NCBI GenBank assembly: GCA_958296125.1
Contig: OY282444.1
Span: 2,697,623-2,761,622 of the forward strand
Direction: 5' to 3'
DNA: 64,000 nucleotides
Source: an uncultured Poribacteria bacterium
GTDB taxonomy: Bacteria > Poribacteria > WGA-4E > PCPOR2b
The notes under the pieces were generated by a model. It was not told where the DNA came from and ran no database searches. It saw nothing but the letters and a program-made list of their open reading frames with translations. The translations under genes and the position numbers were made by a program. This document shows, piece by piece, positions 56,802-63,777 of this stretch. Each line of letters opens with the position of its first letter. The stretch's first letter is position 1.

Positions 56802-57209
56802 CTACTGCTGCCCCGCAATTCGTAACCGATTGACAGCGCGAGCCAATGCCGCCTCTGCTCGTGCGCTGTTAATATTTGGATCGCGTGAAGCAAGAAGGTC
56901 CTGTGCACGTTGGCGAGCGGCTTCTGCACGTTCAACGTCAATTTCATACGCCCATTCAGCGGTATCCGCCAACACGGTGACACCGGTGCGTAATACTTCA
57001 AAAATACCCCCACTGGTTGCGACGGATTGGGGCGTGTCAAATGCACGGATGCGGATTTCACCAATATCCAGCACAGTCAGAAAAGGAATGTGCCCAGCGA
57101 GAATCTCAAACGATCCCAGTTCACCGGGAGCTCTCACGCCGCTAACGTCACCTTCATAAATCAACTGTTCGGGTGTTCGGATTTCGAGATGTAATCTTTT
57201 TTCAAGCAT
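56802..57209 (-). CDS. atpC: ATP synthase F1 epsilon subunit
   Basis: 135 aa; MLEKRLHLEIRTPEQLIYEGDV...ILAGHIPFLT... canonical epsilon N-terminal beta-sandwich plus C-terminal helices. Confidence 0.9.
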   Translation of the reverse strand: MLEKRLHLEIRTPEQLIYEGDVSGVRAPGELGSFEILAGHIPFLTVLDIGEIRIRAFDTPQSVATSGGIFEVLRTGVTVLADTAEWAYEIDVERAEAARQRAQDLLASRDPNINSARAEAALARAVNRLRIAGQQ

Positions 57210-57341
57210 AATTATGTGGTTGGGCAGGGCAATCGCATATAAATATTGTCAAGGACTTACTCACTCCCACTGCGAAAATCATGTCCTATTTCCTACTGCG
57301 TATGACGATAACTTTGGCATAGGAAATCTACTCGTAGCCAC

Positions 57342-57357
57342 AGGTTTCCTAACCTGG
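57342..57357. repeat. 16-bp palindrome CAGGTTTCCTAACCTG-type motif (copy 2)
   Basis: Same 15-mer as at 22784; lies in the unusual 280-bp atpD-atpC spacer. Confidence 0.5.
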
Positions 57358-57488
57358 GATCGCCCGCGGGTTAGAAAATCCCGATTTCATCGAGGACAGT
57401 CTCTGCGCCACGACAGCGATTAGCTCCAGTTTCTGATTGCTCACTTACCTAATTCCTATAACAGATGCAGTTCCCCTATGGGGTTGAG

Positions 57489-58901
57489 TTAATCCGCTGC
57501 CTCTTGTAATTCCTCAGATTTTGCCTGCTCAAATGCCTCGTTAATCGTACCGATGTAAGCCAAAGCCTGCTCTGGAATTTCGTCGCAATCCCCTCTGAGA
57601 ATTGCCTGACACCCTTCAACGGTGTCCTCAATCCTGACATACTTACCCGGCTTGCCTGTAAATTGTTCCGCAACGAACATAGGCTGCGTCAGATACTTCT
57701 CCAACTTTCTTGCCCGCGTAACTGTCAGTTTCTGCTCATCTGAGAGCTCGTCCACACCCAAGATCGCGATAATGTCCTTCAAACTCTCGTACTCTTGGAT
57801 AACTACTTTCACTTGACGAGCCGTTTGATAATGTTCCTCGCCAATAATGTCCGGGGTCAGAATACGAGATGTGGATGTCAGCGGATCGATAGCAGGATAA
57901 CGTCCCATCTCGACGATTGAACGTTCAAGGCGTGTTACAGCGTCGAGATGTCCAAAAACGGCTACAATTGCAGGGTCTGTATAGTCATCAGCCGGAACAT
58001 AGACTGCTTGGAATGAGGTAATCGAGCCTTGGTGTGTTGATGTAATCCGCTCTTGTAATTCTCCCATTTCCGTCGCGAGGGTTGGCTGGTATCCAACGGC
58101 GGAAGGCATACGCCCTAGAAGCGCGGAGACCTCAGAACCGGCGAGGGTAAACCGGAAGATATTATCCATGAAGATCAGCACATCCTGCCCTTGCTCGTCC
58201 CGAAAGTATTCAGCTATAGCCAATCCGGCAAGGGCAACACGCAACCGGGCACCGGGCGGCTCGTTCATCTGGCCAAAGACCATTGCAGTTTTATCCAGCA
58301 CTTCATACTCTTGCAGGTCCAACCACATATCGTTTCCTTCACGCGTCCGTTCGCCAACCCCACAAAAAACGGAATAGCCGCCGTGCTGAGTCGCAATATT
58401 GTTAATCAATTCTGCAATCAACACGGTCTTCCCGGTGCCCGCACCACCGAAGAATCCAACCTTTCCACCTCTTGCAACCGGCTGAATGAGGTCAATGACT
58501 TTAATCCCGGTTTCCAACATCTCTGAAACGGTGCTCAGTTCGTCCTGAGGTGGTGGATGGCGGTGAATGGGATACCGCTGTGTTGCTTCTACCTCACCCG
58601 CTTCATCAATTGGCTGCCCGGTAACGTCGAAAACACGGCCTAACACGACATCGCCCACAGGCACCGAGATCGGTTCGCCGCGGTCGATAGCAGGCGTACC
58701 GCGTACCAGTCCGTCGGTTGTGTCCATCGCAATGGCGCGGACTCGATTTTCGCCCAAGTGCTGTTGAACTTCAAGTGCCAATGTCGTTCCATCCTCACGC
58801 TGCACTTCGATTGCGTTGAGAATATCGGGCAATTTTCCTTCTGAAAAATCAAGGTCAACGCGTGCGCCGACGATTTCTAAAACTTTGCCTTCGTTCATCA
58901 T
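57489..58901 (-). CDS. atpD: ATP synthase F1 beta subunit
   Basis: Walker [16 protein letters not shown]-like region, 470 aa. Confidence 0.97.
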
Positions 58902-61570: not shown

Positions 61571-61662
61571 GGTAAACCTCTATGAGTAAATTGTTTCAAG
61601 CACTTCCCGTTCCCAATCCTCGTAATTTATCGTTTTTGGTATTACGCATTACGTATTACGGA

Positions 61663-63219
61663 TTATGTATCATGTCTGAACTGTTCCTTGAAACTTTTTA
61701 CAGCTGCATGCAAACTGTCGATAAGTTCGTCACTCAAAACACCGGTTTCAGCAATTTCTGTTAGAATGTTTGCATGTTCTCTCTCCATATATGAGAGAAA
61801 CTCGGATTCAAATCGGGCAACCTCGTTAATTCCAATATCATCCAAATAGCCATTAGTTCCAGAGAAAATCGTTACCACCTCTTTTTCAGCCGACATTGGC
61901 TCATACTGTGGCTGTTTCAGCAGTTCAACTAGGCACTCCCCGCGCCGAAGTTGGGCTTGGGTCGCAGCATCAAGATCAGATCCAAACTGTGCAAACGCAG
62001 CAACTTCACGAAAGCTGGCTAAGTCTAATCTTAGTGACCCTGCAACTTCAGCCGCACTCATTGCTTTAATCTGAGCTTTTTTATCAACCCGGGAAACCGA
62101 TGTGCCGACATCAATCGCTGGTCGGACTCCTTCGTTGAAGAGATCCGTTATTAGATAGATTTGCCCATCCGTGATGGAGATCACATTTGTTGGGATGTAG
62201 GTGGTAAGATCGCCTTCAAAAATCTCGATAATTGGCAAAGCGGTCAGCGAACCTCCTCCCAATTCATCGCTGAGTTTTGAAGCACGTTCCAACAACCGGG
62301 AGTGGAGATAAAAGACATCGCCCGGGTACGCCTCACGTCCCGGGGGGCGCCGTGAGAGCAGAGACATCTGACGATAAGCCCACGCATGTTTGGTAAGATC
62401 GTCATAAATAACGAGGGCATGCCGGCCGCTATCCCGGAAGTATTCCCCCATCGAGGTGCCTGTGTAAGGTGCAAGATACTGGAGCGGAGACGACTCACTC
62501 GCCGGTGCCGAAACAACAATCGTGTAATCCATCGCCTTATACTGCTCTAACGTATTAACAACTTGGGCAACTGTTGAGCCCTTTTGCCCGACTGCGACGT
62601 AGATACAATACATATCGATGTCTTCTTGAGCACCCGTTTCCTTCCATTTTGAATTCTGGTTAATGATTGCGTCAATAGTGATAGCTGTTTTGCCCGTTTG
62701 GCGGTCGCCGATAATCAACTCACGTTGTCCGCGACCAATTGCTGTCATACTGTCAATCGCCTTCAAACCAGTGTACATCGGCTCACTCACCGGCTGACGT
62801 TGCACAATGCCTAACCCCTTCCGTTCAACGGGGAGGGTCTGTTCGGTCTGGATTTCTCCTTTGCCGTCGATAGGTTGTCCAAGAGCGTTTACAACGCGCC
62901 CAAGCAGCCCCTCACCGACAGGCACTTCAAGCAATCTGTTAGTCCGCTTGGCGAGATCTCCCTCATGAATTAACTTATCTTCGCCGAAGAGGACGCAGCC
63001 GACATTATCCTCTTCAAGGTTAAAAGCCATGCCGGAAACACCGTTGGGAAATTCAATCATTTCACTCGCCATGACGTTGGCAAGTCCGTGGACACGGGCA
63101 ATTCCATCGCCAACTTCGAGCACAGTTCCGGAGTCGTATACGTCGACCTGCTGGCTATATTGTAGGAGTTGTTGTTTTAGAATGTTTGATACTTCGTCGG
63201 GTCTGACTTCTCTTGCCAT
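61663..63219 (-). CDS. atpA: ATP synthase F1 alpha subunit
   Basis: 518 aa; Walker A GDRQTGKT and alpha-subunit conserved blocks. Confidence 0.97.
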
Positions 63220-63234
63220 AAGCTATTTTCTCCC

Positions 63235-63777
63235 TTATCCCCTTGCAAGTAATGCTCTCATTCGTTGAAGCTGTGATGTGATGCTTCCATCAAACACGGT
63301 ATCCCCTAATCGCACAATGATACCTCCTCGGATCTCGGCATCTTCGTTCAAGTCAAGCCGCACTTCCGCCCCTGAATAATCGCTCAGTTGCTGGGTGAGG
63401 TTGGCTGCTTGTGCATTGGTAAGCGGAACCGCTGACGTTACCTGTGCGACGACACGTCCCGCTTGCAAATCAACGATTTCCAGAAACAGCTGTAAGATTG
63501 TAACTAGAAATCCCTCGCGTTGTTTCAATGCCAGCAAGAGCAGAAAATTGAGGGTGAGCGGATGAACAGTTTCGGATAGGAGTTGTTGGAACATCTCACC
63601 CTTGAATTGCGGCGATAAAATGGGATTGGTCAGAAACTGATCGAAATCTTCCGATTCTTGTGCCAATTGGAGGACCTGATTGGTATCCACAACAATGCGA
63701 TCTAAAATATCCTGCTCCATCGCTGCATCGTACAATGCTTGTGCGTAGGGCTTGGCAATGCGAATCTCTCTCATCAA
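63235..63777 (-). CDS. atpH: ATP synthase F1 delta subunit (OSCP)
   Basis: 180 aa; OSCP-like helical N-domain (AKPYAQALYDAA) immediately upstream of atpA. Confidence 0.85.
   Translation of the reverse strand: MMREIRIAKPYAQALYDAAMEQDILDRIVVDTNQVLQLAQESEDFDQFLTNPILSPQFKGEMFQQLLSETVHPLTLNFLLLLALKQREGFLVTILQLFLEIVDLQAGRVVAQVTSAVPLTNAQAANLTQQLSDYSGAEVRLDLNEDAEIRGGIIVRLGDTVFDGSITSQLQRMRALLARG

Follow-up and report, generated by a model that had tools for sequence, protein, structure and literature searches.

Are the genes lodged between atpG and atpD in the ATP synthase cluster of a Poribacteria genome accessory to that enzyme, or are they cargo that the cluster has come to tolerate? The locus lies in a stretch of 64,000 nt (hereafter, the window) from a member of the Poribacteria, a phylum that comprises symbionts of sponges and corals as well as free-living relatives, and its atp cluster is carried on the minus strand. 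An original prediction gave the order atpH-atpA-atpG-cupin-tandem-domain gene-atpD-atpC, and this layout is real: a check of the open reading frames (ORFs) finds all seven on the minus strand where they had been placed, with firm family matches (Table 1). Judged by their sequences, the five atp genes are unambiguously identified in both Pfam and NCBIfam. The cupin gene and the gene for the tandem-domain protein (TD) had been proposed to be either a lineage-specific accessory to the F-ATPase or a tolerated insertion into a highly expressed operon.

Synteny and gene decay support the second proposal. We consider, with a probability of about 0.8, that the cupin, TD, and a third, DnaJC28-like gene are unrelated and dispensable passengers at a gene-collecting junction between the gamma and beta subunit genes (the gamma-beta junction), and are not parts of the ATP synthase. 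In one clade of Poribacteria, this junction would be a long-lived site accumulating genes, with the passengers riding on the same strand, inside or between the atp transcription units. The locus warns against guilt-by-association annotation, as genes embedded in a highly conserved bacterial operon would here not be components of the ATP synthase, and about 110 loci document the stepwise accretion, shuffling, and decay of genes at the junction of a core operon. What is new is modest, and consists of this accretion and decay series, a DddK-type lyase homolog in Poribacteria, and an uncharacterised family of predicted lipoproteins without a Pfam or NCBIfam model.

Distribution of the embedded genes among relatives

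A scan for TD in one genome per species (GTDB) yielded 138 loci, of which the best 80 (L001-L080), all from Poribacteria, were mapped by tblastn. TD stands between atpG and atpD in 29 of these 80 loci, where it is 55-77% identical to the protein of the window. The remaining 51 carry TD (50-65% identical) with no atp gene within 6 kb, in a neighbourhood that is itself conserved and comprises genes for an HpcH aldolase, an MR/MLE enzyme, a PduO-type adenosyltransferase, TD, an aldo-keto reductase, a WD40 protein, and PhyH. The TD domain also occurs in secreted single-domain proteins of 140-150 aa (P0261, P0265, P0281, P0293; L081-L084:10001-10456), likewise far from atp genes; those of pelagic Tara Poribacteria adjoin PhyH, aldo-keto reductase, sulfatase, Rieske, and amidohydrolase genes. 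A 144-aa gene adjoining one single-domain relative was considered as a second half-domain and rejected as unrelated.

The content of the gap varies among the 29 atp-type loci, with the order cupin-TD in some and TD-cupin in others, and two TD copies in four of them. Most have a DnaJC28-like gene (PF09350/DUF1992), called as an intact ORF in 24, and 12 have an enzyme of about 600 aa, dependent on thiamine pyrophosphate (TPP), between TD and atpD. In one subclade, a 550-aa protein with dockerin and Cu2_monoox_C domains follows atpG.

The constancy of place and orientation in 29 genomes is what an accessory role would lead one to expect: the cupin, TD, or both would be lineage-specific F1Fo factors (for assembly, regulation, or anchoring), whose position ensures stoichiometric co-expression. 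The short distance between atpG and the cupin gene, with no terminator, and the purifying selection acting on both genes in most lineages fit this picture as well. It is at odds with the 51 loci in which TD is far from atp genes, with the similar placement of its single-domain relatives, and with the homologs of the cupin in other phyla (an Acidobacteria metagenome-assembled genome and one other large genome), which lie in unrelated contexts and not near atp genes.

Decay and selection

Each of the passengers has decayed in at least one locus, with the atp genes left intact. In the window, two inserted genes had been claimed; the cupin and TD are present, but they are not the only ones, as the 231-bp spacer between them (60009-60239) holds both ends of a DnaJC28-like gene, with about 310 nt deleted in between. 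By blastn, positions 57-117 and 118-159 of this spacer are 85-92% identical to the 5' and 3' parts, respectively, of the undamaged gene, as present in L001, L016, and other loci. L001, the closest relative, has an intact DnaJC28-like gene and a cupin gene cut to an N-terminal remnant of about 40 codons (L001:4870-5060), and L010 retains remnants of both (the N-terminal part in the case of the cupin; L010:5560-6000). TD is damaged in L012 and L016, which share a premature stop codon, with a further frameshift in L016 (5970-6790) and an insertion of about 170 nt in L012 (5970-6975).

The atp genes flanking the gap are ordinary and strongly constrained. The atpG of the window is 83-98% identical to that of its relatives, and the ratio of nonsynonymous to synonymous substitution rates (dN/dS) for atpG, atpD, and atpC is mostly 0.05-0.10 (atpG about 0.05, atpD about 0.06), with 0.20 for one atpC pair, that with L016. 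The cupin gives 0.17-0.20 and the folded domains of TD 0.12-0.35 in most pairs; between the window and L001, the latter reach 0.67, a noisy value, since dS is only 0.13. In the window, the ancestral start codon of TD has also been lost: homologs start with MTFKLGSM…, where the window reads …LYTKGGFPMFIVV…. The options left (59964-60062) are an internal ATG, with a short signal peptide from which the positively charged N-region is missing, or an upstream GTG without a Shine-Dalgarno sequence. Together with the dN/dS of 0.67, this loss may reflect relaxed constraint.

For an accessory role, these data are unfavourable in two ways: dN/dS of the embedded genes is 3-10 times higher than that of the atp genes, and for each of them there is an atp-type lineage with intact atp genes in which it is missing or a pseudogene. 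Neither the cupin nor TD matches an ATP-synthase family in Pfam or NCBIfam. The sole candidate, a PDB profile match of TD to ATPEG1 of the Euglena ATP synthase, has E = 0.9 and was rejected as noise. Distribution and decay largely refute the accessory hypothesis, which we regard as very unlikely.

History of the junction

A search for AtpD homologs, aimed at Poribacteria with TD elsewhere, stayed within the same clade, all 120 matches listed being at least 88% identical, and a scan of metagenomes with an AtpG alignment was used instead. In L090, L093, L094, and L101, whose AtpG is 63-74% and AtpD 78-81% identical to that of the window, atpG and atpD are adjacent, separated by 20-53 nt and no gene. 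The synteny check suggested in the original prediction thus finds both TD elsewhere in 51 of the 80 Poribacteria loci and an undivided junction in these four distant relatives. Intermediate situations exist: the gap measures 651 nt and contains only the DnaJC28-like gene in L086/87 (AtpG 77%), 2530 nt with the DnaJC28-like gene and two unrelated ORFs in L088 (AtpG 74%), and 420 nt with one 75-aa ORF in L085 (AtpG 83%). In Poribacteria, the gap is most often occupied by the DnaJC28-like gene, probably also its earliest resident (e.g., L001:5047-5520, L002:5412-5885, and L087:6693-7394; PF09350 at 1.6e-22 for the intact gene). A literature search returned nothing linking DUF1992 with ATP synthase. 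In many distant loci from metagenomes (AtpG 41-53%; L097, L103, L114, L115, L117, L121, L123, and others), atpG is not followed by an atpD within 6 kb, and the gamma-beta junction would appear to be split in other lineages too.

A neighbour-joining tree of 87 TD proteins, rooted on distant members of the family, places the atp-located ones in a single derived clade nested among those found elsewhere. The sole exception, L048, concerns an extra TD copy in a genome that also has atp-located copies. The simplest history would begin with adjacent atpG and atpD, between which a DnaJC28-like gene inserted. The cupin and a relocated copy of TD would then have been added, with the TPP-dependent enzyme or the Cu-monooxygenase-like gene in some lineages, and lineage-specific additions, inversions of order, duplications, losses, and decay would have followed.

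The insertion of the cupin and TD is old, being common to 29 species-level genomes. A recent insertion of unrelated cargo, which the original prediction had envisaged, is therefore right as to the genes occurring elsewhere and the adjacency of atpG and atpD in relatives, but not as to the date. Another idea is that of a mobile or horizontally transferred island that recently landed in the atp operon of this genome. The GC content falls to 0.42-0.45 at the edges of the atpG-atpD segment, and the content of the gap differs between genomes, as such an island might show; the coding parts are at 0.45-0.55, like the adjoining genes, and the segment is not bordered by an integrase, a transposase, a tRNA, or terminal repeats. 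The 29 genomes sharing the arrangement are not near-identical strains (their TD proteins being 55-77% identical), the TD phylogeny fits vertical descent, and only the 252-nt insert between atpD and atpC (see below) is recent and private. An island of this kind is extremely unlikely.

The break has a parallel in cyanobacteria and chloroplasts, where the genes for beta and epsilon form a unit apart from those ending in gamma, i.e., the cluster is split at the same junction as in Poribacteria. In contrast with that split, the two halves in Poribacteria stay adjacent and co-oriented, with 0.4-5 kb of variable unrelated genes between them. As in split clusters, atpD is preceded here by a conserved leader and a promoter-like site.

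Transcription of the cluster and possible reasons for retention

The hairpin-capable element that directly follows the TD stop codon is kept in relatives whatever gene comes next. It was considered as a conserved terminator; pairing of its outer helix is possible in 89% of cells, with no covariation beyond that of shuffles and no U-tract. A consensus scan finds the promoter-like site upstream of atpD (TTAAAA-16 nt-TATAAT, 58956-58929, 10/12). The last 35 nt or so before atpD are conserved in 29 relatives, regardless of the upstream gene, and the -35 region is not. The atpD and atpC genes may consequently be transcribed on their own, from an internal promoter.

Several points weigh against regarding the embedded genes as mere passengers. 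The stretch from atpG to TD in the window has no detected terminator, so that the cupin and TD are probably co-transcribed with the atp genes. At least 29 species retain the position with unchanged orientation; purely neutral cargo would not be expected to persist for so long, and such long retention could reflect selection for co-expression. The adjacency of atpG and atpD in outgroups comes from metagenomic loci whose taxonomy is drawn from AtpG/AtpD identity only, and not from the genomes with TD elsewhere themselves, and the TD tree is a distance tree without bootstrap support.

These points bear most directly on a variant in which the passengers are functionally unrelated to the ATP synthase, and are held in place by selection for strong constitutive atp transcription, i.e., adaptive hitch-hiking rather than neutral tolerance. 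The retention of the site across 29 species, the uniform orientation, the lack of detected terminators in the gap, and the repeated recruitment of genes to it (the TPP-dependent enzyme, the Cu-monooxygenase-like gene, a second TD copy) are all consistent with this variant. Nevertheless, individual passengers are often lost, the constraint on TD is relaxed in the pair formed by the window and L001, and the conserved leader and promoter-like site of atpD suggest that atpDC may be a unit of its own and the gap an ordinary intergenic space. We hold adaptive retention to be unlikely, and likewise a more novel reading, an actively selected 'expression dock' at the gamma-beta junction, into which unrelated metabolic and envelope genes would be recruited and swapped so that their expression is tied to energy status. 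The set would comprise the DnaJC28-like gene, the DddK-like lyase, the Poribacteria-restricted TD lipoprotein as a new extracytoplasmic family of enzymes or binding proteins with conserved active-site motifs of its own, the TPP-dependent decarboxylases, and the Cu-monooxygenase-like protein. A true co-chaperone role of the DnaJC28-like protein in F1 assembly is a more remote possibility. Dispensable passengers at a gene-collecting junction remain our preferred reading.

The tandem-domain protein

The likely start of TD in the window is the ATG at 60008, preceded by an AAGGAGG Shine-Dalgarno sequence, and the resulting protein of 260 aa is identical to database entry P0001. It had been described as carrying a membrane anchor. 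The N-terminus is indeed hydrophobic, but it has the features of a lipoprotein signal peptide and not of an anchor: it ends in a lipobox (hydrophobic N-terminal signal, then [LVI][ASTVGI][GAS]C) at Cys15 (…TLGGC in the window, MFIVVLIAIVTLGGC). The lipobox, L-(V/G/I)-G-C, is kept in 26 of 27 aligned homologs, typically as A-L-(V/I)-G-C, and its invariant Cys precedes a disordered linker. TD is therefore predicted to be an exported lipoprotein rather than a membrane-spanning protein, and would be topologically apart from the cytoplasmic gamma and beta subunits, which further argues against an accessory role. The linker (about residues 16-54, window 59847-59963) is rich in Met, Asp, and Thr, with MDxM-like repeats, is predicted to be disordered, and differs strongly in length among species; it may resemble Met-rich metal-binding segments.

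The tandem repeats of about 100 aa noticed originally are confirmed at the DNA level, where the duplication is still seen over 169 nt (74% identity, period 315 nt), and in the predicted structure. In the AlphaFold model, the predicted local distance difference test (pLDDT) score exceeds 90 over both repeats, the linker being disordered, and each repeat is a beta-alpha-beta-beta-alpha-beta unit of ferredoxin-like type. The two are predicted to pack as a pseudo-dimeric alpha+beta barrel, and fold comparison of the model returns ABM, Dabb, and Cld-type barrels, which places the predicted structure in the dimeric alpha+beta barrel superfamily (the clan of Dabb, ABM, EthD, and DUF1330).

An affinity with Dabb, among other families, had been suggested, and holds at the superfamily level, but not as membership. 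Pfam Dabb (PF07876) gives partial matches of 17.8-18.1 bits on the TD of the window, vs. a gathering cutoff of 25. Sub-threshold matches are found in 21 of 27 homologs for Dabb (best E 4e-5) and in 13 of 27 for DUF1330; TD stays below the cutoff of every Pfam model, and NCBIfam gives nothing at all. TD is thus related to Dabb at the clan level and is not a Dabb member. Fused alpha+beta barrels are known, such as the putative tandem ABM monooxygenases 3MCS and 3F44, the metagenomic 2PGC, Chlorobium CT0912 (3GN6), and the anthrone-oxidase-like 5F9P. TD is only 5-19% identical in sequence to these or to the single-domain Dabb, ABM, and EthD families and, unlike them, has its own motifs in both repeats (YPxGGK, SYDN, PHRxVEFEF, and RSDY), predicted lipoprotein export, and the Met/Asp-rich linker.

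There are 613 TD homologs in the database, and the few named ones belong to Candidatus Poribacteria; an exhaustive profile search of 1.84 billion proteins (representatives at 50% identity) gives only 125 matches at E <=0.001. One relative (P0258) is labelled Nitrospinota, and one homolog (P0241, 597 aa) is fused to a Peripla_BP_6 periplasmic solute-binding domain. TD would accordingly represent a new, small, and essentially Poribacteria-restricted family of exported alpha+beta-barrel proteins. In the scheme proposed here, the lipoprotein would most likely bind or transform a small organic molecule outside the cytoplasm; that it specifically binds a small molecule or is a cofactor-independent enzyme there is our best guess, and a tentative one.

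A gene resembling TPP-dependent 2-keto-acid decarboxylases lies directly 3' of TD both in the atp gap and in some of the other loci (L003:6966-8762; L040:10941-12581; L072, L077, L078). As evidence of a functional link, this adjacency was set aside and amounts to no more than a weak lead, since identity between the two TPP enzymes is just 23% and their subfamilies differ (benzoylformate-decarboxylase-like in the atp gap vs. indolepyruvate/phenylpyruvate-decarboxylase-like elsewhere). The two pairs weakly hint at a common aromatic keto-acid context.

The cupin

The likely start of the cupin gene is the ATG at 60659, giving 139 aa as in database entry P0382; the start at 60677 assumed originally falls within its Shine-Dalgarno sequence. 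Pfam DMSP_lyase (PF16867) scores 33.3 bits against a gathering cutoff of 27, with a match limited to profile positions 93-161 of 162, Cupin_2 scores higher (61.5 bits), and no NCBIfam model claims the protein. Among PDB entries, phmmer finds DddK (5TFZ/6A53; E about 4e-20, 41% identity over 102 aligned aa), the small cupin lyase of dimethylsulfoniopropionate (DMSP) and dimethylsulfoxonium propionate (DMSOP) from SAR11 'Candidatus Pelagibacter ubique' (PDB 5TFZ, 5TG0, 6A53-6A55).

In DddK, Mn is bound by His56, His58, Glu62, and His96, Tyr64 is the catalytic base, Tyr122 positions the carboxylate, and Trp26, Phe108, Trp110, and Phe117 form an aromatic cage (PMC10686828). When the two proteins are aligned, the metal ligands and the catalytic Tyr are kept in the cupin as His62, His64, Glu68, His102, and Tyr70, and the counterparts of Tyr122 and the cage are Tyr128, Trp32, Phe114, Phe116, and Phe123, the sole change among all of these being the conservative replacement of Trp110 by Phe116. 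Both are single cupin domains of near size (139 aa vs. about 130 aa in DddK) and share the H-x-H-x3-E-x-Y motif, the His of the second motif, Tyr122, and Trp26/Phe108/Phe117. The cupin differs from DddK in having Phe for Trp110 and no conserved Tyr21, in its host (Poribacteria, not SAR11), in its place inside an atp cluster, and in an activity that is so far putative.

The cupin is a DddK homolog, predicted to be cytoplasmic, and its complete DddK active site is a further argument against an accessory role in the ATP synthase. Most likely, it acts on DMSP or a related zwitterion as a metal-dependent lyase, and an activity of the DMSP/DMSOP-lyase type can reasonably be expected, if not with confidence. 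A literature search found no report of DddK in Poribacteria, and a homolog of this lyase there would bear on organosulfur cycling, if the activity is true. A match of the duplicated domain to a well-known family unrelated to energy metabolism had been considered in the original prediction; it is the cupin that has one (DddK-type DMSP lyase), TD being assigned only to a superfamily. With TD elsewhere in 51 of 80 loci, passengers that decay, predicted export, and a DddK-type cupin, the proposal of a lineage-specific accessory to the F-ATPase is not supported.

Features of the cluster and its other junctions

Table 1. Features of the atp cluster, with positions in the window.
Feature	Position	Strand	Basis and remarks
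atpH (F1 delta/OSCP)	63235..63777	-	Pfam OSCP 1.3e-47; TIGR01145 2.3e-41
atpA (F1 alpha)	61663..63219	-	TIGR00962 5.6e-232, above cutoff
atpG (F1 gamma)	60704..61570	-	TIGR01146 1.5e-95
Cupin, DddK-like, 139 aa	60240..60659	-	Cupin_2 6e-17; longer ORF to 60677
DnaJC28-like (DUF1992, PF09350) remnant, inside cupin-TD spacer	~60081..60183	-	blastn
TD (tandem-domain predicted lipoprotein, 260 aa)	59226..60008	-	alternative GTG start 60062 gives 278-aa ORF
TD repeat domain 1 (~residues 55-155)	59544..59846	-	secondary structure; DNA repeat copy 59657-59825
TD repeat domain 2 (~residues 160-260)	59229..59531	-	secondary structure; DNA repeat copy 59342-59510
Hairpin-capable element, directly 3' of TD stop codon	59173..59209	-	kept in relatives
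atpD leader with promoter-like site and conserved ribosome-binding region	58902..58956	-	consensus scan
atpD (F1 beta)	57489..58901	-	TIGR01039 7e-225
252-nt insertion, atpD-atpC spacer	57225..57476	-	alignment with five relatives
atpC (F1 epsilon)	56802..57209	-	NF009980 1.8e-39, above cutoff; Pfam ATP-synt_DE_N and ATP-synt_DE; match 5e-24
Strong intrinsic-terminator-like hairpin, end of atp cluster	56709..56745	-	17 pairs and T-run

Other junctions of the cluster are permeable as well, as seen from a gene between atpA and atpG in some relatives and a private insertion between atpD and atpC in the window. The former is a 23S-rRNA-IVP gene (PF05635), present in seven relatives (L002 (3552-4016), L013, L021, L024, L027, L028, and L029); the corresponding spacer of the window measures 92 nt and is partly conserved with these seven loci.

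The atpD-atpC gap, announced as 280 bp, is real and measures 279 bp (57210-57488). In an alignment with five relatives, the spacer is only 14-15 nt long (GATTAA-CCCAACCACATAACT-ATG), and the window has 252 extra nt, private to this genome, with the target standing on both sides as an imperfect 12-nt direct repeat (57477-57488 CTCAACCCCATA / 57213-57224 CCCAACCACATA). This insertion is a separate and recent event. It was considered as a repeated element, and rejected, as blastn matches it neither to the rest of the window nor to any of the 80 related loci L001-L080. A structured or known RNA was likewise rejected, the spacer having no Rfam match at E up to 1 and the insert an unremarkable fold z-score of -0.46.

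The insert contains the palindrome that had been reported to recur at 22784, a 16-nt hairpin (6-bp stem and 4-nt loop) that is exact at 57341-57356. The second copy exists, at 22783-22798, with one mismatch, but its significance does not hold up: a 15-nt exact repeat is expected about six times in a window of the same size and composition, the motif is found in only 1 of the 80 related loci, and the rest of the spacer matches neither the 22.8-kb site nor any other sequence. The palindrome was therefore rejected as a repeat family, and is no more than a coincidence.

Downstream of the atp cluster, the window encodes a secreted CBM9-like protein (PF06452, 6e-13) at 55674-56378 and an 832-aa ORF at 52255-54753. 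One arm of a 44-nt inverted repeat (73% complementary; 9185-9228 / 56485-56528) lies just 3' of the atp terminator. A 54-nt direct repeat (78% identical) occurs at 23962-24015 and 27224-27277, its copies being 3.3 kb apart.

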